DNA of 64,000 bases, taken from NCBI GenBank assembly GCA_045544455.1, contig JAZPYZ010000022.1, positions 8,819 to 72,818 of the forward strand. Reading direction: 5' to 3'. The stretch is from Acutalibacteraceae bacterium (lineage in GTDB: Bacteria; Bacillota; Clostridia; Oscillospirales; Acutalibacteraceae). The notes beneath the pieces are model-generated. The model saw only the letters and a program-made list of their open reading frames with translations. It was not told the DNA's origin and did no database searches. Below, in pieces: positions 2,427 to 20,426 of this stretch (the first letter of the stretch is position 1; each line of letters opens with the position of its first letter). A program made the translations under genes and the position numbers.

Positions 2427-2427
2427 A

Positions 2428-3339: not shown

Positions 3340-3372
3340 TTCGTCACCCCTTTCGTTTCGGTCGTACATACA

Positions 3373-3458
3373 GTTCGTGCCCGCACCCCGCGGACAGGCC
3401 GTTATATTCTGCGGTAAAGCCGCGATATAAGCCCACCGCAAAGGGTGCGGGCACGAAC
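3373..3458 (-). promoter_or_regulatory. Long-range perfect inverted repeat (16 bp arms, 54-nt spacer) between the surface-protein gene and araC
   Basis: gttcgtgcccgcaccc (3373-3388) is the exact reverse complement of 3443-3458. The spacer contains a nested imperfect hairpin (ttatat-cgcgg...ccgc-aatataa on the minus strand). No U-run follows. Confidence 0.5.
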
Positions 3459-6500: not shown

Positions 6501-7001
6501 TTGTGCATCGGCATACACAGCATACGTCTTCGCACCCTGCCGAGAGACGAGGGCGTTCAGCGCCTGCGGCGCGTTACTCGAATCGTAGTACGTGACACCG
6601 GTGTCGTTATTGAGCAACTTCAAATAGTTCGCACTCGTCACGCCGGTGAACGAGACACGCACACCCCAGCCGTTACTATAGGTCAAGCCGGTGTGGGTGA
6701 ATTGCATCACCATGTCTTTGCCGGCAAGGGACGCGAGATCCACTTCCGCATAGGAGTAACCGTTGCTCGAACCGGTCAAGGTAACGGTATCGGTGCCGGC
6801 TTCGTAGGTGGCAACCGGTGCGCTGGCGCCCAATTCTGCCGCTTTGGAATGACCGAGCACGATGGTGCTTTCGGTCGCGAGGTCAGCACTGCTGCCTTGC
6901 GCCGGGACCGAAGTAACTTCAGCCGTGCCGCCGAGTGACAGGCCGACGCACATACCGGCGACCAGGCACACGCTCAGCACAATGGCTAAGATTTTCTTCA
7001 T
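3501..7001 (-). CDS. Large modular cell-surface protein (signal peptide, 2 A-type + 3 B-type beta-sandwich-like modules, Thr/Ser linkers, C-terminal hydrophobic anchor + KKKRED tail)
   Basis: 1166-aa ORF. Signal peptide MKKILAIVLSVCLVAGMCVGLSLGG. Internal repeats are visible in the translation. B-type modules begin NVNLAVDDxT.V and end L.L.DI.I.N..SLVP (3 copies). A-type modules contain GYS.AE.DL and end VSN.VVY.V (2 copies). Poly-T / S-rich linkers. C-terminus is PNSNTGNASGALGALALTAALAIPVIVVTKKKRED. Confidence 0.9.
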   Translation of the reverse strand: MKKILAIVLSVCLVAGMCVGLSLGGTAEVTSVPAQGSSADLATESTIVLGHSKAAELGASAPVATYEAGTDTVTLTGSSNGYSYAEVDLASLAGKDMVMQFTHTGLTYSNGWGVRVSFTGVTSANYLKLLNNDTGVTYYDSSNAPQALNALVSRQGAKTYAVYADAQTDGTYTYYFFVDGTLKGSCAGQPQPTMLRFDQSGHHSGYAPKVSNIVVYEVAAPASESSSTTTTTTTTTTTTGSNGPAASNVNLAVDDNTVVSTSGTLNGGVFDKTTASIEIPLTSGTPSISFAVPAGALADEYVVSFNVKMNGGWETNGLKLTLGPDAILKLHKQNYAASGDELGGIYFSDGTTDTKKKAYTDTIDSTDVRNWMVTNSVDVVAHVQPNATDSAKKDIDIYYADTLIGTMEGVTVSDTISFQTIVQSWNDKLTLTDITIANNASLVPGATTTSTTTTTTTTQSTESSSTQSTQSTAPIQIPNNGAMTNTDAVPGKVFGGTNYAPLSAMEGYQNNTAPAPVKDEAGGTITLGGTGNGYSRAEFDLTGLTMYDDYIISFNAGSFANWISSTWGLQIGMITEAGEVDNKQSFIFAGTNNHKFTDNDGTAVSSFSQTLTGSVKFDIVVDVDTTGASPTRTYYVFVNGAKVYTSPAQPVIEPQLALVGSRGGTNTWTVSNLVVYKVGETPVQAAANVNLAVDDSTNVSITDKAATAVFDKTTSNISFAHQDKTVGIQFEVADGALANEYVVAFNAKMNGGFYDNGLKLTLGTDAVFQVQKTAGDVGVLTFNGEEQARNVAIYKAMSTDTVDIVAHVQPDNANPGKSKVAIYYNNQLIGTMTGVTVSDTVLFQTIKNSAWGDVLELKNIQIRNDPSLVPSGSSSSSGSQSTASSGSQSTTSSNSQATNPTTTPAASGVNLATADNTVVSTSGPVSGATFDKNTASIDISLKNGMPAVNFDVMTGALANEYTVSFNVKMGGAHLENGFKLTLGADAVVKVSKQGGIYFNDDQQVKASEKVGGKSVFDWLTNESVNVVAHVYPNATDANFRDVDIYYAGEYVGTISKVLVSDDISIQTLTRAYGDRLTLKDVAIRNDKTLVPATQATTATTTKAAATTTAKDGSTTAAGSTTKATAGSNGNTPNSNTGNASGALGALALTAALAIPVIVVTKKKRED
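4308..4379 (-). repeat. 3 x 24-nt in-frame tandem repeat inside the surface-protein gene (encodes SSGSQST-type linker)
   Basis: ggtcgactggctgcccgacgagg occurs at 4332-4354 and at 4356-4378. A degenerate copy lies at 4308-4331. The protein reads ...SSGSQSTASSGSQSTTSSNSQ... Confidence 0.85.
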
Positions 7002-7208: not shown

Positions 7209-9044
7209 TTATTCTTCCGAGTTGTATGCTTCGAGGTTGTCGAGCCAGAAGGTGTGTTGGCCTTTGCCATCCACGTACAGGCCGATGTTTTGGATCTTCG
7301 CGAGTTCCCATTCTTCCGAAGCGGAGGTTTCGCTGGCGGTAAAGTCAGCGAACGGAATCGACACGAGTTTACCTTCGCTACCGGTGATTTCGTGTTCATA
7401 GTAGAACGAAGCACCGTTGACGCAGTTAACCGTGATCTTCAGGGTTTGTTCGCTACCGTCACCTTTCACCCAGAAACGCAAGCCGTTGTTGTTTTCCCAG
7501 GTCTTGCCGTAGGTCAGTTTCACACCGCCCCAGCCAACGTCGGAGACGTCATAGGTGTATTTCACCGCGTATCCGCTACCGCCTTGGGCATTGTCCTTAT
7601 CCAGCGTGAGCTTGATGTTGGTGCCGGCGGATTGTTCGACCACGTATTGAGCAATGTGGGTTTCGGCGTCGATTTCATAGTTGTCGAAGTTGTCGACCGT
7701 CTTCGGCGAGATCGGCAGATCTTCTTCCAACGGTTTGAACAAGCTGTCGATGGTCGCTTGGTTCGAAGCACTCGCTTTTTCGAGTTCTACTTCCCAAGTC
7801 GAGCTCTTTTGAATCACGTGCCAGGACGCGCCGCCCAACCACGGGCAGAGTTCGAGGACGAGTTTGACTTTTTCCGGATCGTAGTTGTTCTTCATTTGTT
7901 CCATGTTCAGTTCGGAGAAGCCGTTGCCTTCTGCCGTGTCGAACAAGCTTTGGAGATGACCTTGTTCTTGAGCATCGAGAATATAGGCGTTCCACAGAGC
8001 GATCGCACCGCCCGGGTTTTTCGCGCCTTTTACCAGCCAGAACGAGAGAACTTCACCACGAGCATAGTAGCCGTCGGTTTGCGCGTCACGAGCCATCGGT
8101 ACGATACCGAGGTTGCCTTCTTGCGCAAGCGAGACAACAGCCGCGTTGGAGTAGAAGTTTTGAGCAAAGACCATCGCGATACGGCCGTCAGACAGCCAGT
8201 TGATGGTATCTTCCAACTGCGGAGGCGTGCATTGATACACGTTTACCCAGTCGGACAGATATTTCATCGAACGAGCGATCGCCGGATCGGAGGTGTTGTT
8301 GATAACCGCACCGGTTTCAGCGTCGAATTCACCCATCGGGATACCGACGGTGTACAACATACCGAACGCACGGCACATACCCAGACCGTAACGAGTCGGC
8401 ACGCCGTCGGCGCCCATTTCGGTCATTTCGATGGCATATTCTTGCAGTTTGTCAAGCGTCCATTCGTCTTTCAGGTAGAGTTCCCACGGGGTTTCGAGGC
8501 CCGCGTCACGGAACAGTTTTTCGTTGTAGAACATGGTTTGCGACTGTTGCAAGGTGTACGGCATCATATAGTTGCCGCCTTGGTAGGTGGTCGCATCCAA
8601 CAGGTCGCGGATCGGATCGTAGAATTTGTGGCTCAGATCCACGTATTGGTTAACGTCGTCAACCAGGTTGTTTACGATGTAGCGCGGGAAATCCGCCGAG
8701 TCAGGACGGTACGAACCGACATCCGGTGCGTCACCCGACAAAACTAACGTCGCAAATTTGGTGGTGTATTCGTTGTAGTGAACCGCCGTAACGTCCACTT
8801 CCAGTTCATACACATCTTTCAGCATGTTTCTGTACCGTTCGGTCAAATCACCGGTCAGGCACATGGTAACCTTGTTGCTTTTAACCGTAACAGCCGGCAT
8901 ACCCAGTTCGTTGTCTGCACCGACTTCGTAGCCTTCGTCGCTATCGCCTTTGTTGCCATCGCCTTTTTTACCGCAAGCGGTCAGGCTGAACAGGCAACCG
9001 AAAACGAGCAACAAAGCCAAAAGCAAGGATAATGCTCTTTTCAT
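7209..9044 (-). CDS. ABC transporter substrate-binding lipoprotein (family-1 SBP) with C-terminal CBM-like domain
   Basis: ORF 7209..9095. Start moved to ATG 9044 (MKRALSLLLALLLVFGCLFSLTACGKK, lipobox), behind GGAGGAGA. Central region is a typical sugar SBP. The last ~150 aa (GLRFWVKGDGSEQTLKITV...LVSIPFADF...WELAKIQNIGLYV) look like a CBM11-type carbohydrate-binding module. Confidence 0.85.
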   Translation of the reverse strand: MKRALSLLLALLLVFGCLFSLTACGKKGDGNKGDSDEGYEVGADNELGMPAVTVKSNKVTMCLTGDLTERYRNMLKDVYELEVDVTAVHYNEYTTKFATLVLSGDAPDVGSYRPDSADFPRYIVNNLVDDVNQYVDLSHKFYDPIRDLLDATTYQGGNYMMPYTLQQSQTMFYNEKLFRDAGLETPWELYLKDEWTLDKLQEYAIEMTEMGADGVPTRYGLGMCRAFGMLYTVGIPMGEFDAETGAVINNTSDPAIARSMKYLSDWVNVYQCTPPQLEDTINWLSDGRIAMVFAQNFYSNAAVVSLAQEGNLGIVPMARDAQTDGYYARGEVLSFWLVKGAKNPGGAIALWNAYILDAQEQGHLQSLFDTAEGNGFSELNMEQMKNNYDPEKVKLVLELCPWLGGASWHVIQKSSTWEVELEKASASNQATIDSLFKPLEEDLPISPKTVDNFDNYEIDAETHIAQYVVEQSAGTNIKLTLDKDNAQGGSGYAVKYTYDVSDVGWGGVKLTYGKTWENNNGLRFWVKGDGSEQTLKITVNCVNGASFYYEHEITGSEGKLVSIPFADFTASETSASEEWELAKIQNIGLYVDGKGQHTFWLDNLEAYNSEE

Positions 9045-9211
9045 GATGTCTCCTCCAAACATTTTTCTTCTTTGTATTTTACCGCACGCGAGCAAGTCCC
9101 TCCGCGCGGAAATTACCGTTTTTGTACTACTGGTTACATTTTACTATAAACCATAGCGTTTGTAAATCGTTTTTTGCGGTTTTTTCTGCCAAATTTTGCA
9201 AATCCACTCGA

Positions 9212-10183
9212 TTACATACCGGTCAAACCGGAACGTTCCAACCCTTGCGTAAAGTGTTTCTGCAAGAAGATGTACATAACCAATACCGGCAAGATAACCA
9301 ACAAGCAGGCGCCTTGCACACGAGCCGAGCTTGCGTACGCGTCGAGCATCATCGCGTTGTGCTGCGGGCTGAGGGCCGACAACAACGATCGGATGTTCGA
9401 CAAAGCCGACGAAATGGTCATCGTGCTGGTGAAGTACATCGTGGTGAAATAGTAGTCGTTCCAGTACCACACCGTCGAGATCAGGAATACCGTCAAGAAG
9501 GACGATTTGGCGTTCGGGATGATGACCTGCAGGAAGGTGCGAACAAAGCCGCAACCGTCGATATAGGCCGCATCTTCCAGTTCTTTCGGCAAGCCGCGGT
9601 AGAACTGACGGAAGATGTAGATAAACAACCCGGCGCGCATACCCACGCCCAACAATGCCGGTAACCACATGACGAACGGCGTGTTCAAAATGCCGAGGTC
9701 TTTGTAGAACAGGTAGGTCGGGGTGTATACGACCTGCGGCGGAACCATGATGGTCAAAATAACCAACGCAAACAGCAGCCCTTTGCCTTTAAAGTTGAAA
9801 CGGGCAAAGCCGTAACCAACCAGCGTACAGGCGGCCACCTGCAACACCGAACTGAACAAGCAGATGGTGATGGTGTTCCACAGCGAGGACGGGTATTTCA
9901 ACGCGTTAAACGCATCGACGATCGGTTCGACCGTGAAATGTTTCGGAACCCACACGACCGACGGATCGGTCAAGTCGGCTTGCGAACGGAACGCGTAGCT
10001 GATCATCGTCAACAACGGGTAGATGATGATAAAACAGACGCCGATCAGCAACATCGCACGGAACAACGACCAGCCGATGGATTTCACCTTTTGAGTGGCG
10101 CGGAATCCGCGGTTATTGCCTTCCCAAAGCGCAATGGCTTTGTTGGCAACGTTGCTCTTGGCAGCTTCAAAATTGATTGCCAT
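9212..10183 (-). CDS. Carbohydrate ABC transporter permease (MalG-like)
   Basis: 323-aa polytopic ORF with the EAA loop LEDAAYIDGCGFVRTFLQVIIP. Confidence 0.9.
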   Translation of the reverse strand: MAINFEAAKSNVANKAIALWEGNNRGFRATQKVKSIGWSLFRAMLLIGVCFIIIYPLLTMISYAFRSQADLTDPSVVWVPKHFTVEPIVDAFNALKYPSSLWNTITICLFSSVLQVAACTLVGYGFARFNFKGKGLLFALVILTIMVPPQVVYTPTYLFYKDLGILNTPFVMWLPALLGVGMRAGLFIYIFRQFYRGLPKELEDAAYIDGCGFVRTFLQVIIPNAKSSFLTVFLISTVWYWNDYYFTTMYFTSTMTISSALSNIRSLLSALSPQHNAMMLDAYASSARVQGACLLVILPVLVMYIFLQKHFTQGLERSGLTGM

Positions 10184-10223: not shown

Positions 10224-11132
10224 TTAGTCGAGATAGGTAACGCGTTTGTTTACAAACCCTATTACAACTGCCAGAATCACGATAATGACGACGAAGTAAA
10301 CCCAGGCCAGCGCCGCCGAATAGTCGAAATCAATATCGGTGCGCACCGCGCTCAGAATCTGCGTCATAACGTTGTTGCCATAAGCGGTAAAGGTGTCGGT
10401 AATGGTGTAAACCATATTAACCAACAACATCGGTGTGATCATCGGGAAGGTAACTTTCCAGAAAATCTCCCATTTCGTACCGCCGTCGATCGAAGCCGCT
10501 TCATACAATGTGGGCGGAATCGATTGCAACGCCGACAAGAACAACACGATCTGAATACCGGATTTCCAAACCAGTTCGAAGATGTTGTTGGCGGCATCGA
10601 CGATAAACGAGGTGATCTCTTCCGGTAGGTTCATCCCCTGCAACATCGTTGCCAAGGACGTAACCTGGAACATCTGCGACGTCTTTTCACCCGATTGCAT
10701 CATCTGCGAGGCGATATCGCCGTTGATGATCTCAATAACGACACCGGATGCGATGATAACCGGCAGGAAGAAGATCGCACGTACCGCGGTACGACCGTGG
10801 AATTCCTGGTTGATCAACAACGCCAAGATCAAACTGAACACCATAACCAACGGCACTTGATACAACAGGTCTTTCAAGGCGTTGACCAAAGCCGGCGTAT
10901 AATCCGGATCTTCGGTAAAGATCTCGACAAAGTTGCCGATGCCTTTCCATTCCATCTCAAACCCGTTGGTGGTAATGGTGAGTTCGTTAAAGCCGTATAC
11001 AAACGACATGATCAACGGGTAGGCGTAAAGAACGAAGAAACCGATCAACCACAAGGCGATAAAGCCATAGCCGACAAGCGCCTTTTTGCGCTCGTACGAC
11101 ATTTTACGGCGTTTCAAAGGGGATTCGCTCAT
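10224..11132 (-). CDS. Carbohydrate ABC transporter permease (MalF/LplB-like)
   Basis: 302-aa polytopic ORF with the EAA loop YEAASIDGGTKWEIFWKVTFP. Its start abuts the stop of the upstream gene. Confidence 0.9.
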   Translation of the reverse strand: MSESPLKRRKMSYERKKALVGYGFIALWLIGFFVLYAYPLIMSFVYGFNELTITTNGFEMEWKGIGNFVEIFTEDPDYTPALVNALKDLLYQVPLVMVFSLILALLINQEFHGRTAVRAIFFLPVIIASGVVIEIINGDIASQMMQSGEKTSQMFQVTSLATMLQGMNLPEEITSFIVDAANNIFELVWKSGIQIVLFLSALQSIPPTLYEAASIDGGTKWEIFWKVTFPMITPMLLVNMVYTITDTFTAYGNNVMTQILSAVRTDIDFDYSAALAWVYFVVIIVILAVVIGFVNKRVTYLD

Positions 11133-11133
11133 A

Positions 11134-13374
11134 TCAGTTTCCTCCTTTCACGGTGTAACCGTTGGCCGGTACCGTCACATCATCCACCGACACGTCCGCA
11201 TCGGTATAGTTTACATAGACCGTAGCACCGTTTTCGTACACGGTTTTCGCGACGTCTTCCACCACGTAGCTGTGATGCATGATCGCCGAACCTTCGGTTT
11301 GATCATAGACGTCGTTCAGCGTTTCGTACGCGGTCACCACGTCGTCGGCATATTGGCCGTATTCGATGCTGTACAGCGTGGTGTACTTGGTGTCACGCAG
11401 TTCGTCATAGTCGGTTTCGGTCAACAAGAAGGTCATCATGCTGCCGGTCTCGATCGCCTGCAAGGTCATTTCGCTGACCGAGGAGGTCAAGTTCGCCGCG
11501 GAAGCCGAATAGGTTTTCGCGCCGGAGAATACCAACTGATAGAACGGGATCGAACGATCCACCACGTCGAAGCGGCTGGACGAGATCGGCAGGTTGATGA
11601 TCGTGTCCGCGCTGAGCACGCCCGGCAGGTTACCGCCGGAAGCCATTACCGGATACGATTCTGCAAATTTCGCCGTGGCCTTTTCGATTGCTTGTTCACT
11701 GTCGTTGCGGATCCAACCAACCTGACGGTAGTCGGAATACAACGTATCGCCGAACGAACCGGTCGAGATACCGATTTCGCCGTATTGATCCAGTTTCGAG
11801 AAGGCTTTTATCACCTTATCGCTGATATCGCCGATATTGACCATCGACATCAGTTTAGAGGATTGCGATTTGGTTTCAAACAACAGTTGGATACTGAAGG
11901 CTTCTTTCTTCGCCAAGGTGCCGCTGATGGTCTGTGCACCGCTGGCGAACGACAGATAGCCGTTTCCAAACTTGTTAGTCAGTTGTAATTCTTGATCCAG
12001 ATACAGATCCACGTCGTTTTCGTTGCAGTATTGGATCAGTTCTTTAAAGGCTTTTTTGCCGCCCAGATCGCCCGAGATCGACACCTTGCCGGCGGCTTTC
12101 TGTTTGATCAGGGTGTTGTCCCAGTTAACGTAACGGACCGTGATATCGTCCACACCGGCTTTTTGAAGTTTTTCCAACATCGCTTTTGCCGCGGTGTAGT
12201 CGGTGATCTCTTGGATTACGTCGGTCTGGATGCCCATAACCGGACGAGTAACGCTGACACCACCGTACAGTTCGAGGAAGATGCTCGTATCGGATTCATC
12301 CGACACGGTCATGCCTTCTTCTTCGATCAGGTATTGTTGATAGCGTTTCGCCATGCCGGAATAATCCGCATTCTCTTTGTCCAAGAAGAAGTAGGACATT
12401 TCGACAAAGTCGGCGTTGATGCCGCCCTCTTCGTACACGATGAACTGCTGCACACGGGTGTACACGGTGGTACCGAGCGTGTAGGTATCGTCGCCACGTA
12501 CCCGGAAGGTCACGCTGGCGTTGTTGTACGAGGTTTTGTTGCCCGAAACGCCGGCGTTGATTTCCGCCGAACTGTTTTGGGTAATAACACCCAGCATCGC
12601 GGCATCGCCGTTCTTGATACCGAACATCGGCAGATGCGCATCTTGCGTGGTGGTTTCTTTCCGGAGCAGGGTTTCGGTCACGTCACGGCCGTACACCGGT
12701 TGCGAGTACGACGTATAGGCGTTTTTGCCGTTGTTGAAGTCGATCATCGCACCGCTGCCGTCCGGCACCACGATGTAGCCGGTATCTTCGGTCGAGCCGG
12801 CGCCGAAATACGGCAACAGATCAATCTTAGACATGACGTTGGTACCGGTTTCGGTGATCTCTTCGGTGATGATCCGTGCGCACAACCGATCTTCTTTCAG
12901 TTCGAGTTCGACCGGAATGAAGAACCCTTCATAATCCATCGTATACTCGATGCGGACACCGTTTTCGATGCCTTTGACCTCAAAGTTGCCGGATTTGACC
13001 GACGAGGTAAAGGACGCGGCGGTATCGCGCACGCTGTTTTTGTCGATGTAATGTACGATCAGCATCGTTGCGAGTTGTTGCTGATACTTACCTTTCGCAA
13101 GCGGATCTTCTTCCCACGCGGTGGGGTTACTGTACCAAACCTTGCCGGATTTCAAATCTTCTACCGTAAAGAAACAGGTTTCTTGGTTGAAGGTGAATTT
13201 CAGGTTTTTGTTTTCGATCACGACGTCGCCGGCCGGCAGATCAAAGGTTTCTTTCGAAACGGCTTTGTCGCCATCGTCCGCGGTCGCCGAAATCATCGCC
13301 CCATGCGAGAAACCGACAATGCAGGCCATCGCACACACGCACGCGAGAAGAGCTTTCAGTTTTGTATGTAACAT
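11134..13374 (-). CDS. Secreted protein of unknown function, DUF5696-like
   Basis: 746-aa ORF behind GAAGGAGGAA, with an N-terminal signal/anchor MLHTKLKALLACVCAMACIVGF. No catalytic motif I can name. Size, secretion signal and position next to a Yip1 gene inside a sugar-ABC cluster match what I recall for DUF5696 proteins. This needs HMM confirmation. Confidence 0.7.
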   Translation of the reverse strand: MLHTKLKALLACVCAMACIVGFSHGAMISATADDGDKAVSKETFDLPAGDVVIENKNLKFTFNQETCFFTVEDLKSGKVWYSNPTAWEEDPLAKGKYQQQLATMLIVHYIDKNSVRDTAASFTSSVKSGNFEVKGIENGVRIEYTMDYEGFFIPVELELKEDRLCARIITEEITETGTNVMSKIDLLPYFGAGSTEDTGYIVVPDGSGAMIDFNNGKNAYTSYSQPVYGRDVTETLLRKETTTQDAHLPMFGIKNGDAAMLGVITQNSSAEINAGVSGNKTSYNNASVTFRVRGDDTYTLGTTVYTRVQQFIVYEEGGINADFVEMSYFFLDKENADYSGMAKRYQQYLIEEEGMTVSDESDTSIFLELYGGVSVTRPVMGIQTDVIQEITDYTAAKAMLEKLQKAGVDDITVRYVNWDNTLIKQKAAGKVSISGDLGGKKAFKELIQYCNENDVDLYLDQELQLTNKFGNGYLSFASGAQTISGTLAKKEAFSIQLLFETKSQSSKLMSMVNIGDISDKVIKAFSKLDQYGEIGISTGSFGDTLYSDYRQVGWIRNDSEQAIEKATAKFAESYPVMASGGNLPGVLSADTIINLPISSSRFDVVDRSIPFYQLVFSGAKTYSASAANLTSSVSEMTLQAIETGSMMTFLLTETDYDELRDTKYTTLYSIEYGQYADDVVTAYETLNDVYDQTEGSAIMHHSYVVEDVAKTVYENGATVYVNYTDADVSVDDVTVPANGYTVKGGN

Positions 13375-13396
13375 CTCTTATTCCTCCTTCAAGCTC

Positions 13397-14014
13397 TTAG
13401 ACACGGTACGCGAGTTCCTGGAAGATCGACACCACAAAGGATGCAAGTTGTTGTGCCAAGCTGAAGATCAGTAAGCACACAAACACGATAATCAGGATCA
13501 TGACGATCGTAAGCAGAATCGATTTTATGGTTTCGCCGAGCGAATAGTCGTGAAACACCGTAATGCCGCAAACCAAAATCAACACACCCCACAACGCACC
13601 GACCGCACCGACGATCGTCATGAACAACGATTCGTTCGCGAGCAACGCGTTACTGATCAGGGTGTTGATCAGGATCGACAAACTGTACGGCAACAACGCG
13701 ATCGAGCAGAAGAACGCGATCTGGAACAGATGCGCTTTACCGTCGGCCAGCGTCGACACCATCCAGTTACAAACCACAAACAGGATATACAGCACCACCG
13801 TTTGCAGGAAGATCATGCCGATGTTCAGATCTTGCAGTTGGTTTTGGTTGAAGTAAAATCCGGTGCATTGCCGTTCGACAATGCGGGCAATGAAGAATAT
13901 CACAACACTCAGAACCGCAATCACCTTACAGTAGTTGCGACGTTCTTTGTAGTTGGTAAACCCATCCGCCGGATGCATCATGGTGTGCCACAGATTTTTC
14001 CATGTAGATTTCAT
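13397..14014 (-). CDS. Yip1-domain integral membrane protein
   Basis: 205-aa ORF behind GGAGGGATGA. The short N-terminal segment MKSTWKNLWHTMMHPADGFTNYKER is followed by about 5 hydrophobic helices, the typical Yip1-family layout. Confidence 0.7.
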   Translation of the reverse strand: MKSTWKNLWHTMMHPADGFTNYKERRNYCKVIAVLSVVIFFIARIVERQCTGFYFNQNQLQDLNIGMIFLQTVVLYILFVVCNWMVSTLADGKAHLFQIAFFCSIALLPYSLSILINTLISNALLANESLFMTIVGAVGALWGVLILVCGITVFHDYSLGETIKSILLTIVMILIIVFVCLLIFSLAQQLASFVVSIFQELAYRV

Positions 14015-14039
14015 GTTATCATCCCTCCGTCAAATGGAT

Positions 14040-15515
14040 TTACTGGTTCTTCTTTTTCTTGATCTTTTTGATGAATTGAATCACCTTGACCAAGATATAC
14101 AGCGATACACCGCCGATAACCACGAACGGAATCATTACGTTGATGGTTTCTTTACGGGTGTGTTCGAGCGCTTTGATGTAACCATCGCGATCGTCGCCGA
14201 GTTTAAAGTATTTTTTCGCCATGTCGTAGTCGCCAAGCACGTAGTAGGCTTTACCGATACCCGAATAGGCGAGTTGCAGGTTACCGTTTTGTTTGATAAC
14301 GTCGTTCCACTCGGTCATCGCGCCTTTGACGTCACCGTCATCGTACAAGGCCAGCGCCTTCTTGATCGAGTTGATGTAGGCAGTCGGTTCGTAAACCGTG
14401 AAATACCGTTTGTTACTGTCGAGCACCAGGATCTTATCCCCGAGGGTATCGATCGCGGCGACCGTACGGCCGGTACCGACCTGATCACCGGTGCCGCCGA
14501 AGATGCAGATCAAATCACCGGTTTCGTCGCTGTATTGGAACACGCGGCCGGCCTGCCGGTCAAGACAGTTGATATAGCCTGCTTCGTCGTAGCACACGTC
14601 GACGATCGACGTTTGCACGGTGACCGCCATATAGTATCTTGTCTTGGTGTCACCGTAACGGGTGGCATACGACGACGAGATCAACATGTTATCTTTCATG
14701 ATGTCTTCACCGGTCGGATCGATCTTGACCACGTTGTTGGACACCGAGTTGGCCGTACAGGTGAAGATAAACCCTTCCTCGTTGATGTCGAGGTTGGTGA
14801 ATTCCGACGGAATACTGCGTTCCATTTGCGCAATTTGTTCGTCGGTCATAAAGTTACGCCAGATGTTTTTAAACACCTCGGTCACACCCACCGTCACGGC
14901 GTTACCGGCAAAGTAACCGATGAACTTACCGTCGTCCGAATAGGTAATCGCACCTTGATAAATACCTTGACAATGCACGTACACGAAACCACGCACGTCC
15001 ACCACCACGTGCATCGGCAAAAAGTCGATGCCGCTGAACGCGATATCCGCGTCGGGTTTCAGGTATTCGGTCAAGATCTCGCCCGCCGGGCTAACCTTGA
15101 TCGCGCGGTGGTTGTTGTAGTCGGCGATATACATGTTGTCGTTTTCGTCAACATAGATGCCTTGCGGCGCGTTCATCGTCAACACGTCCGAACCACCGGT
15201 AAAGGTGACGTATTCGGCTTTGAGGTTGTATTCGCTGTCGAACACCACGATGCGGTTATTGTTTTTATCCACCACGTAGATGTCTTCGTTCGCGGATACG
15301 AACAGGTCGCTCGGTTCGTTAAACGCGGTGAGCCCCACGTCGACCGCACTGACCGAACGAACCGGCACGTACGAGTCGGGCGCCATAACTTCGTTACCCC
15401 AATAGTTATAGGTGTACGAATTGTAGACCGGTTCCGATAAGGCCGAGGCCGGCGCGGCAAACATTAAAACCACGACCGACAATACGCTGAGGATACAAGT
15501 TATTTTCTTTTTCAT
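14040..15515 (-). CDS. Extracytoplasmic NHL-repeat beta-propeller + TPR protein with C-terminal membrane anchor
   Basis: 491-aa ORF with signal peptide MKKKITCILSVLSVVVLMFAAPASA. NHL-like blades: DIYVVDKNNNRIVVFD, NMYIADYNNHRAIKV, KILVLDSNKRYFTVY. TPR-like AYSGIGKAYYVLGDYDMAKKYFKLG. C-terminal TM IPFVVIGGVSLYILVKVIQFI followed by KKIKKKKNQ. Confidence 0.75.
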   Translation of the reverse strand: MKKKITCILSVLSVVVLMFAAPASALSEPVYNSYTYNYWGNEVMAPDSYVPVRSVSAVDVGLTAFNEPSDLFVSANEDIYVVDKNNNRIVVFDSEYNLKAEYVTFTGGSDVLTMNAPQGIYVDENDNMYIADYNNHRAIKVSPAGEILTEYLKPDADIAFSGIDFLPMHVVVDVRGFVYVHCQGIYQGAITYSDDGKFIGYFAGNAVTVGVTEVFKNIWRNFMTDEQIAQMERSIPSEFTNLDINEEGFIFTCTANSVSNNVVKIDPTGEDIMKDNMLISSSYATRYGDTKTRYYMAVTVQTSIVDVCYDEAGYINCLDRQAGRVFQYSDETGDLICIFGGTGDQVGTGRTVAAIDTLGDKILVLDSNKRYFTVYEPTAYINSIKKALALYDDGDVKGAMTEWNDVIKQNGNLQLAYSGIGKAYYVLGDYDMAKKYFKLGDDRDGYIKALEHTRKETINVMIPFVVIGGVSLYILVKVIQFIKKIKKKKNQ

Positions 15516-15529
15516 GGCTTGTTCCTCCC

Positions 15530-16453
15530 TTATTCTTTAATACCGGCGTGAGCCATCGTTTGCAACACGTTGCTCTGCGAAATGATGAACAACGCAATCG
15601 GCGGAATCATCAGGAACACGGTTGCCGCCGCGCTAACGCCCATACGGGCGATCGAGTTACTCGCGATAAGCTGGGTAATCGCCGTCGGCAACATTTTGAT
15701 CTGTTCGGTGAAGATGTAACCGCCGCCGGTGGAGTTCCACGCACCTTGGAAGGTCAAGATCAACAAGGTCAACCATGCCGGTTTTACGTTCGGCATCACG
15801 ATCTGATAGTAGATGCGGAATTCGCTCGCGCCGTCGATACGCGCCGCTTCCAGCAGCGAGTTCGGGATAACGCTCATAAAGTTCTGCATCAGGAACAGAC
15901 CCATCGAGCCGCCGATAAACGGGCAGATGATCGATGCATAGGTATCGATCAGGCCGAGGTTGGCCATGATGATGTACCGCGGCAACGCGGTAACCGTCGG
16001 CACGAACAACAACGCCGTCATGATCAAACTGGACAGCATTTTGCGGCCGCGGAATTGGTTTTTCGCCATCGGGTATGCCGCCATCGAGGCAAAGAAAATA
16101 TGTAACACGGTAGCGACGATCGATACGAAAATACTGTTCATAACGTACCGCAAGAACGGCACTTGAGAACCCGCAAACATCGCAAACAGGTCGTAGAAGT
16201 TATCGACCGTCGGGTTTACGACGTAGAACTTCGGCGGGAAAATGAAAATTTCTTCGTACGGTTTGAGTGCGGACAGGATCGCGTACACCAACGGGAACGC
16301 CATCATTACCGCAAATAACAGCAACACAATCATAACGAAAGCGTTACCGGTCATAGAACGGTTCGCTTTCTTGCGATGGAAAATGTGTTTGATCCATTGC
16401 ACGAAAGTCCGTCTGGGTTGCTTTGTCTTTGTCATGCTTATCTTACACACCAT
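15530..16453 (-). CDS. Carbohydrate ABC transporter permease (MalG/LplC-like)
   Basis: 307-aa polytopic ORF with the EAA loop LLEAARIDGASEFRIYYQIVMP. Exact start is ambiguous (ATG 16453 or ATG 16435, MTKTKQ). Confidence 0.9.
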   Translation of the reverse strand: MVCKISMTKTKQPRRTFVQWIKHIFHRKKANRSMTGNAFVMIVLLLFAVMMAFPLVYAILSALKPYEEIFIFPPKFYVVNPTVDNFYDLFAMFAGSQVPFLRYVMNSIFVSIVATVLHIFFASMAAYPMAKNQFRGRKMLSSLIMTALLFVPTVTALPRYIIMANLGLIDTYASIICPFIGGSMGLFLMQNFMSVIPNSLLEAARIDGASEFRIYYQIVMPNVKPAWLTLLILTFQGAWNSTGGGYIFTEQIKMLPTAITQLIASNSIARMGVSAAATVFLMIPPIALFIISQSNVLQTMAHAGIKE

Positions 16454-16526: not shown

Positions 16527-17450
16527 TTAGTGGCCGACGTTCGCCAATACCTTGGTGACGAGTTTCTTAGCGAACATCATCATCAAGAACAGAACGGTTG
16601 CGATCGCACAGGCGTATCCCAACTCAAAACGAGTGGAACCGTAGTCCTGGATGTGCAACACGATCGTGTGACCGGCGTATTCCGAAGATGGCATACCGGC
16701 CAGCGCCTGCGAAATACCACCGACTTCGAACGCGCTAACGATCTGGGTGATCGCGCCGAAGGTCAAGGACGGCAGCATCTGCGGCAACGTAACGTACCAC
16801 AATTCTTGCAAACGGTTGCGAATACCGTCGATCATACCGGCATCGAACAAGGAGTTATCCAACCCTTGCAGACCGGCGATGAACGCCAGGAAGCCGGTAC
16901 CCAAACTCAACCACAACTGCACGATGATCAGCACCGGCATAATGTAGTCGGCGGTTTGCAACCACGCCAGCGGTTCGGTAAAGATACCGAGTTGCATCAA
17001 CGCGGCGTTGATCAAACCGTATTCGTCACCACTGAACAGATAACCGAAGATGGTGTACGCCGTACCGGACAAGGCCGGCGCGTAGAAGATAACCGTCATG
17101 ATCGCACGTGCTTTCGGGCTCAATTCGTTGATGAGCCATGCGAAGAAGAAGCACATGAAGTAACCGACCGGGCCGGTGATCAGCGCGAAGATCAGGGTGT
17201 TCTTCAACGCGATCATAAACAACGGATCTTCGGTAAACATACGGAAATAGTTGTCAAAGAAAACGAAGTTCGGAGCTTGCAACATGTTAAAGTCGGTGAA
17301 GCCCAACACAAACGAGGTGGCAACCGGCAGAATGGTGAAGATGAAGAACATCAGCATAAAGGGCGCCATCAACACGTAGTTTTCGCGGTCACGGCGACGT
17401 AACTCGCGCTTAAACTCCGATGATCTCGGCTGTTTTTTTACTTTTGTCAC
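16527..17450 (-). CDS. Carbohydrate ABC transporter permease (MalF/LplB-like)
   Basis: 307-aa polytopic ORF with DAGMIDGIRNRLQELWYVTLP. Its start lies 4 nt after the stop of the SBP gene. Confidence 0.9.
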   Translation of the reverse strand: MTKVKKQPRSSEFKRELRRRDRENYVLMAPFMLMFFIFTILPVATSFVLGFTDFNMLQAPNFVFFDNYFRMFTEDPLFMIALKNTLIFALITGPVGYFMCFFFAWLINELSPKARAIMTVIFYAPALSGTAYTIFGYLFSGDEYGLINAALMQLGIFTEPLAWLQTADYIMPVLIIVQLWLSLGTGFLAFIAGLQGLDNSLFDAGMIDGIRNRLQELWYVTLPQMLPSLTFGAITQIVSAFEVGGISQALAGMPSSEYAGHTIVLHIQDYGSTRFELGYACAIATVLFLMMMFAKKLVTKVLANVGH

Positions 17451-17453
17451 AGC

Positions 17454-20426
17454 TTATCCCTCCCATGTGCCGTCGTGCAACCCGAACTCTTCGCGTTTAC
17501 GCTCGATTTCGCGGTTGGTTTCGTTTGTCCAATAGGTCAGCATTTCGCGCGCATCTTCGTTACGCAGGTAGGTCGCTTTGAACGCGTTGTCCAAGTTACG
17601 GGCCACGTAGTAACCACCCGGCAACTGCGGCAGTTCGATCACGTGTTCGCGTTGTGCGTTCATCGCTTCGAGTTCGGTTTTCGACCAAGACAGTTGGCCA
17701 AAACCTTCGATGTTCGCGGTGGTGTAACGGGCTGCCGCGCCTAACAACGCTTCAATGTCGTTGCCGTAGGACGCTTGCGTATCCGCGCTGACCCACCATT
17801 TCATGTATTCCCAAGCTTGTTCGTCGGTACCGCGTTGCGTTGCCGCTTTCGGCATTACGCACGCCGCGCCGGCGCCGATTTGGGTACGGACGATCTCGCC
17901 CGTCTCTTCGTTAACAAGGCCCGGCACCAGCGCCACGTCCCACAGGCCGGAAATTTCCGGTGCGGCAACTTTCAGCTTGTTGTACATGGTGTATTCACAG
18001 ATCGAGATCGGCATTTCGCCCGAACGGAAACGGTTGTAGTCATCCTTATACAGGTTGAACCCGTAATCGGCGTAGAACGACACCCAATCCTTAAAGGCTT
18101 CGATACCGTATTCACTCGTAAAGGTACATTCGGTCTTTTCTTCGTTGTAGTAGCTACCGCCACTTTGCAACAACAGCATCTGGAATACCGTCGCTTGCGG
18201 CAAACCGATTTCCATGTTGTTGTGTTGCAGGATCGGTGCCATCTCTAACAATTCGTCCCAGGTTTGCGGCAATTCCAACCCCAAATCTTCGAGGATGTCT
18301 TTGCGGTAGAACATCATGTCAAAGGTCTGCGTTTCGGGCAACGCGTAGTAGTGGCCTTCGATCTCATACGGATCCATACCGGTTTCGACGAACCAGGAGG
18401 TCACTTCATCGTATCCATCGTACCCTTCCAGCGATTGCAACGCGCCACGGAGCGCCAAGTTAACCGGCGTATCGCGTGTTGCTGACAAATACACATCCGG
18501 TGCATAACCGGCCATGATCGCGTTGATCAAGCTGGTCGTAACCAACTGTACGTTAACCGGGATTCCGGTTTCTTTATAGAAGCTTTCATCGCTCAAACGT
18601 TTCACGATGTTGGCTTGGTCACGCGCGGTACTGGTCCACACGATGATGCCGCCTTCGCCCGAGTTACCGATGGTTTCATAGTCCATCGTGTACGAGCCGT
18701 ACAGTTGAACCAGTTGATGCCACAAGCTTTCGAAGAAATTGGCACTGGCTTTCGGCGCTTCTTGGTCCGAGGAGGCCACGTACAGATAATCGAGTTGCAG
18801 CGGTTGTTCTTTCATGGTCAAGATCCATTGCGACAACGCGCTGAGGTTTTCTTTAAAGGTGGTCAGTTTTTTCGCGATGCGGCTGGGCCGGTCACAGAAC
18901 TCTTTCAACTGATCCGCCATGGTATACAAAACGGTCGCGGTCGAACCTTCTTTGCCGATAACCGCTTCCAGGGTTTCCGCCTGCGAATACAGGAGATTGG
19001 CTTCACTTTCCAGCGTGTTGAGCAGGTTCGGGATATCGCGCACCAAATCGTAGTCTTGGTAGGAGTCCGGCACCACGCCGGTGATCATGATGATCTTGCG
19101 GTAGATCGCATTGAGCGAATCTTGCGATTCGGCAACCTGTGCCATAACGTTGGACAACTCGTCGAGCGACGGTTCCATCGTGATGGTGTGAGTGCCTTTG
19201 GTCAGGTAGAAGTAATACGGTTCATCTTCCGACGCGCCAACCTCGTTGATCTGCCAATCGGAACCATACAAGAACCGAACCGATTTCATCTCTTCGCAGA
19301 GATATTCATCGTCAACCTTGATCGAATAGGTGGTAAACAAACCGCGCACGTACGATTGTTTATATTTAATACCTATTTTATACCAACCGTCTTCAGGAAC
19401 GTCGAGTTCCCACGATACCCATTGGCCGGTATATTTCCACATTTCGCCGCCCATCGCGTTCATGCGCGCATACAAACCGCCATACGGTTCGGTCGACGGG
19501 CTGGAATAGTCGGCCACCGGACGGGAAACCGGATCCGCTTTCGCGACCGGATTTTCCGCTTGCACCTGTTTAAATTGACCGGTGGTATCTTTTTCTTCGC
19601 CGCCTTGCGGCGCGATGTCTTTATATTTCGGCATATCTTCCGGAGCCGTCAGGAGGAGAGACGCAATATACAACGGTTCACGAATGATGCCCAGTTCGAT
19701 GGTGTGAGTGCCTTCTTCCAGGTAGAAGACAAACGGCAACGTGTGCATGCCTTCGAAATCCATGAACGCCGCGGTCCGCCACCGATACACTTCCAAATAG
19801 TCCGGCGTCAGTTCGTTGCCCTTTTCATCTTGGGCGAAACGACCGTCTTCGGTCTGTTCGTCGATGAAAATACGGCTAAACGAAAATTCATCCGCTTCGA
19901 CAAAGGGATGTTGTCCGTCGATCTTCAAGGACAGTTCGATCGCTTTGTTGGTGTAGGCGATCGCCTGGTACTCCATCTCAAGTTGGTATAAGCCGGTTGC
20001 CGGTACTTCGACCGTCCAGCTAACACTACCCTCTTGGCTTTCCCATTTGAGCACGTTTTCTTTGCCGTCGAAGTCTACCGCTTCGGCAGCCGCACCGTTG
20101 TCACCGGTGAAATCACCGCCGGCGATCACGATATCTTCGGTCGCGCTCGGAATCTCGCCGTACTGCTTGTAGTATTTGTCATACGTCGGCAGTTTTTGGC
20201 TCTCTTCCGGCTCGGCCGTTTCGTCCGAACCTTCCGCCTCTTGCGAAGCATCCGTCTCGTCCGAACCTTCCGTGCTTTCTTGCTCTTCGTCTTCTTTCTC
20301 GGTCACGACCAGAGAAAGATCTTCTTCATCGGTGACGGTCGTCTCGTCCGCCGCCACTACGTACGTGCCGCCCAGCGAGAAAATGACCATCCACAATGCC
20401 AAAAGAAATGACAGCCGCTTTTTCAT
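17454..20426 (-). CDS. Giant (990 aa) extracellular solute-binding protein with acidic N-terminal region and two CBM-like domains
   Basis: Signal peptide MKKRLSFLLALWMVIFSLGGTYVVAA behind TAGGAGGAGAA. Acidic low-complexity stretch (DEEDLSL..EDEEQESTEGSDETDASQEAEGSDETAEPEESQ). Two similar modules (SVSWTVEVPATGLYQLEMEYQAI... and WVSWELDVPEDGWYKIGIKYKQ...), as in CBM6/35-type sandwiches. The C-terminal ~430 aa is a family-1 sugar SBP (IIVWTSTARDQANIVKRL...). Confidence 0.85.
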   Translation of the reverse strand: MKKRLSFLLALWMVIFSLGGTYVVAADETTVTDEEDLSLVVTEKEDEEQESTEGSDETDASQEAEGSDETAEPEESQKLPTYDKYYKQYGEIPSATEDIVIAGGDFTGDNGAAAEAVDFDGKENVLKWESQEGSVSWTVEVPATGLYQLEMEYQAIAYTNKAIELSLKIDGQHPFVEADEFSFSRIFIDEQTEDGRFAQDEKGNELTPDYLEVYRWRTAAFMDFEGMHTLPFVFYLEEGTHTIELGIIREPLYIASLLLTAPEDMPKYKDIAPQGGEEKDTTGQFKQVQAENPVAKADPVSRPVADYSSPSTEPYGGLYARMNAMGGEMWKYTGQWVSWELDVPEDGWYKIGIKYKQSYVRGLFTTYSIKVDDEYLCEEMKSVRFLYGSDWQINEVGASEDEPYYFYLTKGTHTITMEPSLDELSNVMAQVAESQDSLNAIYRKIIMITGVVPDSYQDYDLVRDIPNLLNTLESEANLLYSQAETLEAVIGKEGSTATVLYTMADQLKEFCDRPSRIAKKLTTFKENLSALSQWILTMKEQPLQLDYLYVASSDQEAPKASANFFESLWHQLVQLYGSYTMDYETIGNSGEGGIIVWTSTARDQANIVKRLSDESFYKETGIPVNVQLVTTSLINAIMAGYAPDVYLSATRDTPVNLALRGALQSLEGYDGYDEVTSWFVETGMDPYEIEGHYYALPETQTFDMMFYRKDILEDLGLELPQTWDELLEMAPILQHNNMEIGLPQATVFQMLLLQSGGSYYNEEKTECTFTSEYGIEAFKDWVSFYADYGFNLYKDDYNRFRSGEMPISICEYTMYNKLKVAAPEISGLWDVALVPGLVNEETGEIVRTQIGAGAACVMPKAATQRGTDEQAWEYMKWWVSADTQASYGNDIEALLGAAARYTTANIEGFGQLSWSKTELEAMNAQREHVIELPQLPGGYYVARNLDNAFKATYLRNEDAREMLTYWTNETNREIERKREEFGLHDGTWEG

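Follow-up and report, generated by a model that had tools for sequence, protein, structure and literature searches.

Three probable accessory genes in a twin sugar-importer cassette: an NHL propeller protein, a Yip1 protein and a DUF5696 protein

The CUT1-family (TC 3.A.1.1) ABC oligosaccharide importers of Bacillota that share an orphan MsmX/MsmK-type ATPase, such as the MalEFG-type systems and those of Gram-positive polysaccharide utilisation loci, have two MalF/MalG-like permeases per transporter and binding proteins of the SBP_bac_1/8 type, with no ATPase gene in the operon but a MalK-type ATPase encoded elsewhere, and sugar-type regulators and CAZymes nearby. The locus described here shares these features, but differs in having two permease pairs in one operon, a binding protein of roughly 1000 aa that is not a lipoprotein, and three additional membrane-anchored proteins that are strictly co-inherited with one of the permease pairs. 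To our knowledge, no CUT1 system with such subunits has been described, and a literature search for DUF5696 or PF18952 returned no paper in the library searched. The cassette is widespread in Gram-positive bacteria and apparently unstudied.

Three further systems bear comparison. The GH129 glycoside hydrolases include the alpha-N-acetylgalactosaminidase NagBb (PDB 5wzn/5wzr) and the GH129-like 3,6-anhydro-D-galactosidase DagB/ZgGH129 (PDB 5opq, 8rzk), with a three-domain architecture that is also seen in the DUF5696 protein, although NagBb and DagB are free enzymes whilst DUF5696 is membrane-anchored and tied to a transporter. In YknWXYZ of Bacillus, the Yip1-family protein YknW is encoded with an ABC transporter and an extracytoplasmic, membrane-anchored accessory protein, and modulates assembly of the complex (PMC4887032). 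YknYZ is, however, a MacB-type exporter with a membrane-fusion protein, whereas the partner here is a type I importer and Yip1 is joined to an NHL propeller/TPR ectodomain. The Sus-like outer-membrane utilisomes of Bacteroidota, in which glycan-binding and glycosidase-fold proteins are held on a transporter and a constant chassis is paired with variable enzymes, offer a functional analogy only, as there is no homology, and the membrane and the energy source (ABC against TonB) are different. A physical complex of the utilisome kind would be an inference in the present case.

The sequence analysed, referred to as the window, is a stretch of 64,000 nucleotides from an Acutalibacteraceae bacterium (assembly GCA_045544455.1, contig JAZPYZ010000022.1, positions 8,819 to 72,818). 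The features of the locus are as follows, in the order of transcription.

17454-20426, minus strand: giant solute-binding protein (990 aa), part of module A
16527-17450, minus strand: permease A1, MalF/UgpA-like (307 aa)
15530-16453, minus strand: permease A2, MalG/UgpE-like (307 aa)
14040-15515, minus strand: signal peptide, predicted six-bladed NHL beta-propeller, TPR-like helices, C-terminal TM helix and basic cytoplasmic tail (491 aa)
13397-14014, minus strand: Yip1-domain membrane protein with five TM helices (205 aa)
11134-13374, minus strand: DUF5696 protein with an N-terminal hydrophobic anchor and a predicted beta-sandwich, (beta/alpha)8 barrel and C-terminal beta-sandwich (746 aa)
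10224-11132, minus strand: permease B1 (302 aa)
9212-10183, minus strand: permease B2, the MalG-like partner of B1 (323 aa)
7209-9095, minus strand: lipoprotein SBP with a C-terminal CBM11 (628 aa)
2428-3441, minus strand: AraC-family regulator, a possible regulator of the locus

The preliminary description of three co-oriented genes lying between two sugar-permease pairs is confirmed. The gaps between the three genes are 25 and 22 nt, and each gene is preceded by a GGAGG-type Shine-Dalgarno site. Pfam searches identified NHL in the first protein (E 4e-9, 36.5 bits against a cut-off of 20), together with weak hits to TPR_2, TPR_11 and TPR_1 that fell below their cut-offs, Yip1 (PF04893) over the full length of the second (E 1.1e-11, 45.4 bits against a cut-off of 28.6), and DUF5696 (PF18952) in the third (E 2e-160, covering profile positions 4-612 of 612). 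Hydropathy analysis gave a signal peptide, a C-terminal TM segment (458-476) and a KKIKKKK tail for the propeller protein, five TM segments for Yip1 and one N-terminal hydrophobic segment for DUF5696. An AlphaFold2 model of a fused homologue with 48% identity to the propeller protein reached a pLDDT of 86.4, and the top Foldseek hits were NHL propellers, with TRIM71 at E 8e-16; this resembles generic NHL scaffolds and gives no clue to function.

With regard to the surrounding transporter genes, permease A1 had no Pfam hit at E 0.01 and matched the NCBIfam UgpA-like model at 55 bits, below cut-off, but scored 557 bits on the orthologue HMM, and its orthologues were found in 39 of 391 genomes. 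Permease A2 matched BPD_transp_1 (E 1.9e-16) and a UgpE-like model (91 bits), whilst B1 and B2 matched BPD_transp_1 at E 3.3e-10 and E 7.6e-17, respectively. The giant binding protein has an N-terminal hydrophobic segment without a lipobox Cys, an uncharacterised region of about 580 aa with a weak CBM_35 hit (E 2e-4, below its cut-off), and a C-terminal CUT1 SBP domain (SBP_bac_8, E 3.5e-20 at residues 615-890), with PDB sequence hits to Lin1841 and maltodextrin-binding proteins over residues 585-890. Of 96 orthologues, only 13 have a lipobox-like motif, 93 have an N-terminal hydrophobic segment, and none has a C-terminal TM. The downstream binding protein matched SBP_bac_8 (E 1.2e-17), SBP_bac_1 (E 2.2e-16) and CBM_11 (E 1e-11), and its true start is probably the internal Met about 17 codons in (near 9044), giving MKRALSLLLALLLVFGCLFSLTAC, which carries the lipobox. 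There is no ATPase gene in the operon, but an orphan MsmX/MalK-type ATPase lies elsewhere in this genome (G000), on its contig C9 (G000:C9:84797-85930), and in other genomes such an ATPase sits next to the cassette.

The arrangement recurs far beyond chance. The order propeller+Yip1 - DUF5696 - PermB1 - PermB2 was found in 115 of 124 sampled loci, comprising 43 of 44 loci seeded on DUF5696 and 72 of 80 seeded on the propeller protein. The single exception in the first sample (locus L052) still has a propeller-Yip1 fusion next to DUF5696, and the remaining eight in the second are cut by contig ends or permuted. The propeller and Yip1 are fused into one protein, with Yip1 at the C terminus, in 30 of the 44 DUF5696-seeded loci, and such Rosetta-stone fusions are also present in many database proteins. 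The median distance from the DUF5696 stop to the B1 start over the 44 loci is -4 nt, an overlap; in the window the B1 start lies 1 nt after the DUF5696 stop, with its Shine-Dalgarno site inside the end of DUF5696. Across 401 genomes, DUF5696 is present in 32, the propeller/Yip1 family in 32, and both in 31 (Fisher p = 5.5e-44), whilst B2 orthologues scoring 331 bits or more are in exactly 31 genomes, all of which carry DUF5696. A lack of conserved co-occurrence with ABC permeases had been named beforehand as grounds for rejecting the proposed association, and these counts decisively show the opposite. They also make it very unlikely that the trio has an envelope function unconnected with transport, such as cell-wall remodelling, and is merely co-transcribed: although all three proteins face the envelope and the pocket of DUF5696 has no identified ligand, the phyletic and positional coupling to B-type permeases is near-perfect across distant Bacillota lineages, with overlap of stop and start codons.

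The trio is therefore not placed neutrally between two transporters, but is coupled specifically to the downstream, B-type pair. The A-type pair and its giant SBP are usually linked but separable, being downstream or missing in some loci, disrupted by IS110 in one, and standing alone with their own two ATPase genes in another bacterial family. The flanking enzymes also differ between loci, and include GH26+CBM35, CBM65, GH95, GH36, GH127 and beta-helix proteins. Sugar-type regulators flank the cassette as well; the AraC-family gene in the window (HTH_18, E 1e-19; HTH_AraC, E 6e-16) lies downstream in the same orientation, and an AraC gene also follows the cassette in another sampled locus (L003). 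The proximity of AraC, LacI or GntR regulators to several cassettes, and the presence of the NHL sensor domain of PknD among the fold hits, could be taken to mean that the propeller/TPR-Yip1 protein senses extracellular glycan and signals to these regulators, with DUF5696 generating the inducer. This seems very unlikely, as the cytoplasmic parts are only a short disordered linker and tail with no kinase, HTH or other output domain, the regulator families vary and are not part of the conserved core, and the coupling is to permease genes rather than to regulators.

The DUF5696 protein, for which the preliminary description could assign no motif, is a remote homologue of GH129 glycosidases by predicted fold and by profile. 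Its model (pLDDT 89.4) matched 5opq (Foldseek E 2e-34) and 5wzr (E 7e-27), with a TM of about 0.7 normalised to the target; GH129 was the best match, followed by GH101, GH36 and GH31, and the earlier suggestion of a comparison with GH31-type folds was thus apt. A profile search against PDB sequences gave E 4.7e-14, and hhalign against PF11308 proteins gave a probability of 99.1, although the window protein does not itself hit Pfam PF11308. Shared motifs include GGN after strand 5 and [VI]P[LF]Y. The columns aligned to NagBb Asp435 and Glu478, the canonical nucleophile and acid/base, are, however, not conserved: the window protein has T538/S540 and S579 there, and in the family column 540 is Asp in 27-46% and column 579 is Asp/Glu in 29-46%, with no co-variation between the two (Fisher p 0.16). 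Instead, a different set of Asp, Asn, Arg and Trp residues is nearly invariant, at the C-terminal ends of barrel strands and in N-domain loops. Four Asp residues are 91-95% conserved in 142 diverse representatives, and so are N582, N628, R556 and W418, all on the barrel's catalytic face.

These observations can be read in two ways, both of them tentative. DUF5696 may be an active glycoside hydrolase or transglycosylase of a new GH129-related family with a relocated catalytic set, namely Asp548 in the loop after strand 4, Asp606 in the loop after strand 6 and the N-domain Asp205/Asp231, in which case the propeller/Yip1 unit would merely position the enzyme at the importer's mouth. The beta4/beta6 placement resembles GH31/GH36, which are also fold hits, and catalytic plasticity in this superfamily is documented, as DagB uses an N-domain Asp202 together with barrel Asp486/Glu517 and shares only the nucleophile with NagBb (PMC5698469). 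This reading is possible but less likely than not, given the loss of the canonical positions and the fact that the pocket is conserved in cassettes beside enzymes for unrelated glycans, which is also hard to square with binding of the variable glycan itself. Alternatively, and somewhat more doubtfully, DUF5696 may have lost catalysis and serve as a lectin, lid or docking subunit, with the trio chiefly stabilising, gating or assembling the B-type translocator in a chaperone-like or architectural role. The loss of the canonical pair, the strict, stoichiometric-looking coupling to PermB1, the precedent of Yip1 as an assembly modulator and the typical use of NHL and TPR domains as protein-interaction scaffolds would all agree with this, and the conserved pocket could bind a constant partner rather than the variable glycan, but strong conservation of a polar, Asp-rich pocket on the catalytic face is unusual for a purely structural relic.

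The interpretation offered in the preliminary description, of an extracytoplasmic capture, processing or gating module for a large glycan, is therefore partly supported. Its domain calls were right, the three proteins are not canonical ABC parts, and they form a conserved module with the transporter genes, but its view that the bacterial role of Yip1 is essentially unknown needs correction in light of YknW. The domain and fold assignments, the gene order, the fusions, the overlap, the phyletic coupling, the separability of the A-type permeases, the presence of an orphan MalK-type ATPase in this genome, the variety of flanking genes and the conservation of the polar residues are established by this analysis, whereas the role in carbohydrate uptake, binding, catalysis and a physical complex are inferred. 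Gene linkage shows functional association and not physical contact.

We consider it likely that the three genes encode the obligatory accessory unit of a distinct, B-type CUT1 ABC sugar importer functioning in carbohydrate uptake, within a conserved Bacillota cassette of the order giant SBP - PermA1 - PermA2 - [NHL propeller/TPR/TM + Yip1] - DUF5696 - PermB1 - PermB2 - SBP(s), which would be energised by the shared MsmX/MalK-type ATPase encoded elsewhere in this genome. That the three proteins form a physical complex with PermB1/B2 is only slightly more probable than not, and whether DUF5696 is catalytically active rather than only binding is evenly balanced. In this view, the TM helix of the propeller protein and the five Yip1 helices would form one membrane scaffold, holding an extracytoplasmic propeller/TPR platform next to PermB1/B2, with Yip1 acting as an assembly subunit as YknW does for YknXYZ. 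DUF5696, made in step with PermB1 and tethered by its N-terminal helix, would contribute a GH129-type barrel whose conserved pocket binds, and possibly cleaves, carbohydrate. Together, the three proteins would constitute a membrane-anchored glycan-handling platform assembled on the B importer, which may capture or trim glycan fragments released by locus-specific enzymes and present them to the binding proteins and the translocator.

The minus strand was found to carry a tight string of genes, arranged from the upstream to the downstream end of the cassette as follows, with the last two entries lying downstream of the cassette.

17454-20426, minus strand: 990-aa (giant) binding protein, part of module A
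16527-17450, minus strand: permease PermA1
15530-16453, minus strand: permease PermA2
14040-15515, minus strand: 491-aa NHL propeller protein with TPR-like helices
13397-14014, minus strand: Yip1 membrane protein
11134-13374, minus strand: DUF5696 protein
10224-11132, minus strand: permease PermB1
9212-10183, minus strand: permease PermB2
7209-9095, minus strand: 628-aa binding protein with CBM11
3501-7001, minus strand: 1166-aa protein, directly downstream of the cassette
867-2435, minus strand: 522-aa protein with a weak pectate-lyase/rhamnogalacturonase-like hit

The observation made in the preliminary description, that three unusual genes (NHL/TPR, Yip1 and DUF5696-like) are embedded among sugar permease genes, is real, and its domain calls were confirmed through Pfam. 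The NHL repeats (PF01436) were matched with an E value of 4e-9 and 36.5 bits against a cut-off of 20, whilst the TPR matches were weak, with TPR_2 at 22.8 bits against a cut-off of 27 and TPR_11 and TPR_1 also below their cut-offs. The Yip1 domain (PF04893) was matched over essentially its full length (profile positions 1-172 of 173) with an E value of 1.1e-11 and 45.4 bits against a cut-off of 28.6, and DUF5696 (PF18952) was matched over profile positions 4-612 of 612 with an E value of 2e-160 and 535.7 bits against a cut-off of 25.6. Hydropathy analysis gave a signal peptide, a C-terminal TM helix (458-476) and a KKIKKKK tail for the propeller protein, five TM helices for Yip1, and a single N-terminal hydrophobic helix for DUF5696. 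The gaps within the trio are 25 and 22 nt, each gene has a GGAGG ribosome-binding site, and the start codon of PermB1 lies 1 nt after the DUF5696 stop with its SD site inside DUF5696. Promoter and terminator scans gave results no better than those from shuffled sequences.

The components of a CUT1 type I ABC importer are present, with BPD_transp_1 domains in PermA2, PermB1 and PermB2 (PermA1 being UgpA-like only below cut-off) and SBP_bac_1/8 domains in both binding proteins. There is, however, no ATPase gene in the operon. The genome (1.6 Mb, 23 contigs) instead has an orphan MalK/MsmX-type ATPase on another contig, which is 55% identical to a MalK that sits beside the cassette in Paenibacillus lignilyticus. 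The listed TTG start of the 628-aa binding protein is probably too far upstream, as an internal Met about 17 codons in gives a classic lipoprotein signal (…LFSLTAC), and a binding protein fused to CBM11 is itself unusual. The giant binding proteins (about 1000 aa), on the other hand, are mostly not lipoproteins. Only 13 of 96 orthologues in the fetched loci have a lipobox, and they have only an N-terminal hydrophobic segment, unlike typical Gram-positive SBP lipoproteins, followed by an N-terminal region of about 580 aa without an assigned fold.

The DUF5696 protein is a remote homologue of GH129 glycosidases, as evidenced through both fold and sequence profiles. An AlphaFold2 model built on 57 homologues was confident (pLDDT 89.4, pTM 0.89) and shows an N-terminal helix, a beta-sandwich, a (beta/alpha)8 barrel and a C-terminal beta-sandwich. 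Foldseek against the PDB returned the GH129-like 3,6-anhydro-D-galactosidase 5opq (E 2e-34) and the GH129 enzyme NagBb (5wzr; E 7e-27), followed by GH101, GH36 and GH31. A family profile searched against PDB sequences hit the DagB/ZgGH129 sequence at E 4.7e-14 and NagBb at E 2.7e-7, and hhalign against three Bacillota PF11308 proteins gave a probability of 99.1% (E 5e-18). It is not a canonical member of GH129, however, as there was no PF11308 hit at E <= 0.01 for the protein, and PF11308 occurs in only 4 of the 401 genomes sampled, none of them the genome studied here.

The canonical GH129 catalytic positions were mapped through a Bacillota GH129 protein, which itself aligned only weakly to NagBb in a phmmer search against the PDB. 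NagBb Asp435 (in the motif AYLD, equivalent to DagB Asp486) at the end of strand 4 is one of the two catalytic residues of NagBb (PMC5698469). Glu478 (TSSEE) after the next strand is reportedly the other. In DUF5696, the first of these falls at columns 538-540, where the protein has T538 and S540, and the second falls at S579, with the motif SGGN in place of the EGGN of Bacillota GH129 proteins. Across 160 homologues, and again across 142 diverse representatives of 50% identity clusters, column 540 is Asp in 27-46% and column 579 is Asp/Glu in 29-46%, and the two columns do not co-vary, as a test for a subfamily that keeps an acidic residue at both gave no association. The acid/base Glu is therefore not conserved, whilst the alignment around strand 4 is gapped and uncertain, the profile did not align the catalytic half of the barrel to DagB, and the near-invariant Asp548, lying 8-10 residues further on, may or may not correspond to the nucleophile.

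Other residues are 89-100% conserved instead, namely P204, D205, G206, G208, Y228, G229 and D231 in N-domain loops, and W418, D548, R556, N582, D606, P610, F611 and N628, which lie at or just after the C-terminal ends of barrel strands 2, 4, 5, 6 and 7 in the model. This is the face where TIM-barrel enzymes bind substrate. Catalytic plasticity has already been reported in this superfamily, in that DagB shares only the nucleophile with NagBb, and an N-domain Asp202 from the second monomer is essential (PMC5698469). On this evidence, DUF5696 keeps a functional pocket, which may either cleave its ligand or only bind it. The DUF5696 proteins carry an N-terminal hydrophobic helix in 144 of 160 cases and never a C-terminal one, and by hydropathy are therefore membrane-tethered with the bulk of the protein outside.

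Homologues of the 491-aa propeller protein come in two forms, of about 490 aa, and of about 700 aa with a C-terminal Yip1 domain. A fused 717-aa homologue, 48% identical to the propeller protein, was modelled (pLDDT 86.4, pTM 0.78) and shows a signal peptide, a six-bladed propeller (31-376), four TPR-like paired helices (378-438), one long TM helix (442-484), a disordered cytoplasmic linker (486-504) and the Yip1 helices. The two genes at this locus are split exactly at that linker. A reading of this split as a frameshift artefact was rejected, because Yip1 has its own SD site and ATG and the same split occurs in relatives. The fold hits of the model are generic NHL scaffolds such as TRIM71, Thin and PknD-derived designs (TM 0.75-0.80 normalised to the target), which support the six-bladed propeller fold but give no enzymatic clue. 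The only studied bacterial Yip1 protein that could be documented is YknW, which modulates assembly of the ABC transporter YknXYZ with its extracytoplasmic partner (PMC4887032). A literature search combining Yip1, ABC transporters, NHL and solute-binding proteins found nothing relevant, and no paper in the library searched mentions DUF5696 or PF18952.

The arrangement of these genes is conserved well beyond this genome. Three neighbourhoods of homologues at 55, 34 and 25% identity already showed the same order, and in P. lignilyticus the propeller and Yip1 are fused and a MalK gene is adjacent. PF18952 was then located in 32 of 401 genomes of the phylum (8%; 19 of 278 genera), and 40 regions of up to 20 kb (most about 20 kb) were retrieved and scored with HMMs built from this locus and the three neighbourhoods. 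Among 44 loci, 43 have propeller+Yip1, DUF5696, PermB1 and PermB2 in that order on one strand, with the propeller and Yip1 fused in 30 and separate in 13, and the median distance from the DUF5696 stop to the PermB1 start is -4 nt. The one exception (locus L052, 6735-10860), from a 6.1-Mb genome, is a divergent variant that still has a 635-aa DUF5128-type propeller fused to Yip1 next to a weaker-scoring DUF5696, with the permeases lying 3 kb further on.

A second, independent sample, seeded on the propeller protein in named genomes, gave 72 of 80 complete cores. The others are cut by contig ends or have the B pair moved in front, as in loci L097 and L142, where the permuted order (SBP, B1, B2, giant SBP, A1, A2, propeller, Yip1, DUF5696) shows that the B pair can move to the front while staying in the locus. 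Carriers include many Paenibacillus and Cohnella, Thermobacillus xylanilyticus, Ruminococcus flavefaciens MA2007, Huintestinicola butyrica, Clostridium sp. KNHs205, Alkalibacterium iburiense, Lederbergia galactosidilytica and numerous gut and rumen MAGs. A complete cassette with an adjacent MalK also lies on a 135-kb contig of a MAG labelled Treponema sp. UBA4267 (locus L161), which is either horizontal transfer outside Bacillota or a binning error.

The preliminary description placed the trio symmetrically between two permease pairs, a picture that is refined by the distribution of these genes. The propeller/Yip1 profile was found in 32 of the same 401 genomes, of which 31 are shared with DUF5696 (Fisher p 5.5e-44). 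The scores of the PermB2 profile are bimodal, with all hits of 331 bits or more lying in 31 genomes, every one of which is DUF5696-positive. Below a gap there are three intermediate hits, at 284 bits (the genome of the divergent locus L052), 281 bits (a MAG fragment) and 251 bits, whilst ordinary CUT1 permeases score 233 bits or less. Module A (giant SBP, A1 and A2) behaves differently, as in the first sample it is directly upstream in 25 of 44 loci, downstream of B2 in 5, and not intact directly upstream in 14. In one of those 14 (locus L064, 3662-6521, in a complete genome), A is present upstream but PermA2 is split by an IS110-family transposase while the trio and the B pair stay intact, which is a natural knockout of module A, and in the other 13, A is not seen within about 10 kb. 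A1 orthologues also occur without the trio in five genomes of another bacterial family, and in the three of these whose neighbourhoods were retrieved (loci L162-L164) they form a self-contained A1-A2-MalK-MalK importer with an ordinary SBP of about 380 aa and no giant SBP. The trio is therefore the accessory of the B-type pair, and the A-type importer is a frequent but separable companion.

The enzymes flanking the cassette differ between loci, and include GH127 and DUF4832, GH26+CBM35 and CBM65, GH95, GH36, and a beta-helix protein. At this locus, there is an AraC regulator, which is overlapped by 8 nt by the 522-aa protein whose weak pectate-lyase/rhamnogalacturonase-like hit (E 5e-4, below cut-off) is the only hint at the substrate. 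The 1166-aa surface protein directly downstream of the cassette has a signal peptide and a C-terminal TM helix (1141-1159), but no Pfam, NCBIfam or PDB-sequence match, and a PDB sequence search of the 522-aa protein likewise gave nothing useful. The binding proteins after B2 vary from none to six copies. Several genomes of only 2.2-3.0 Mb (G044, G054, G088, G172 and G236 of those sampled) carry at least five B2 orthologues and at least four A1 orthologues, which implies several cassettes per genome and a large share of coding capacity.

The interpretation offered in the preliminary description was only partly supported. The analysis itself demonstrates the homology and folds, the membrane topology by hydropathy, the strict gene order, the fusion of the propeller and Yip1, the stop/start overlap with PermB1, the phyletic coupling to B-type permeases, the separability of module A, the orphan ATPase and the carbohydrate context. 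It is only inferred from these that the propeller/TPR-TM-Yip1 unit and DUF5696 assemble on PermB1/B2 as an extracytoplasmic platform, that Yip1 plays an assembly role as YknW does, that the DUF5696 pocket binds and possibly cleaves carbohydrate, and that glycan fragments made by locus-specific enzymes are then handed to the SBPs and the translocator. It is considered as likely as not that DUF5696 is catalytic, and it is puzzling what ligand an invariant pocket could have in cassettes that serve different glycans. A more far-reaching possibility, which is not excluded but is considered unlikely, is that the cassette encodes a monoderm counterpart of a utilisome, a stable supercomplex in which a propeller-TPR-Yip1 scaffold and a GH129-derived subunit dock on a type I ABC importer (PermB1/B2). 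This would define a new class of accessory-dependent ABC sugar importers, and DUF5696 would found a new glycoside hydrolase family with a non-canonical Asp-based active site.

CUT1 ABC importers are a known kind of transporter, and what is new here is their association with an obligatory, uncharacterised three-protein accessory unit, which appears unstudied. It is not peculiar to this genome but is a common cassette, as the DUF5696 family has 4,265 clusters at 50% identity with E <= 1e-30. The cassette occurs in cultured Paenibacillus, Cohnella, Thermobacillus, R. flavefaciens and others, and pairs with many different enzyme sets. How Gram-positive fibre degraders move large glycan fragments from the surface into ABC importers is poorly understood compared with the Sus systems of Bacteroidota. 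If the trio is a transporter-bound glycan-handling platform, this would add a new architectural principle to ABC importers, and would also give functions to three domains of unknown bacterial role.
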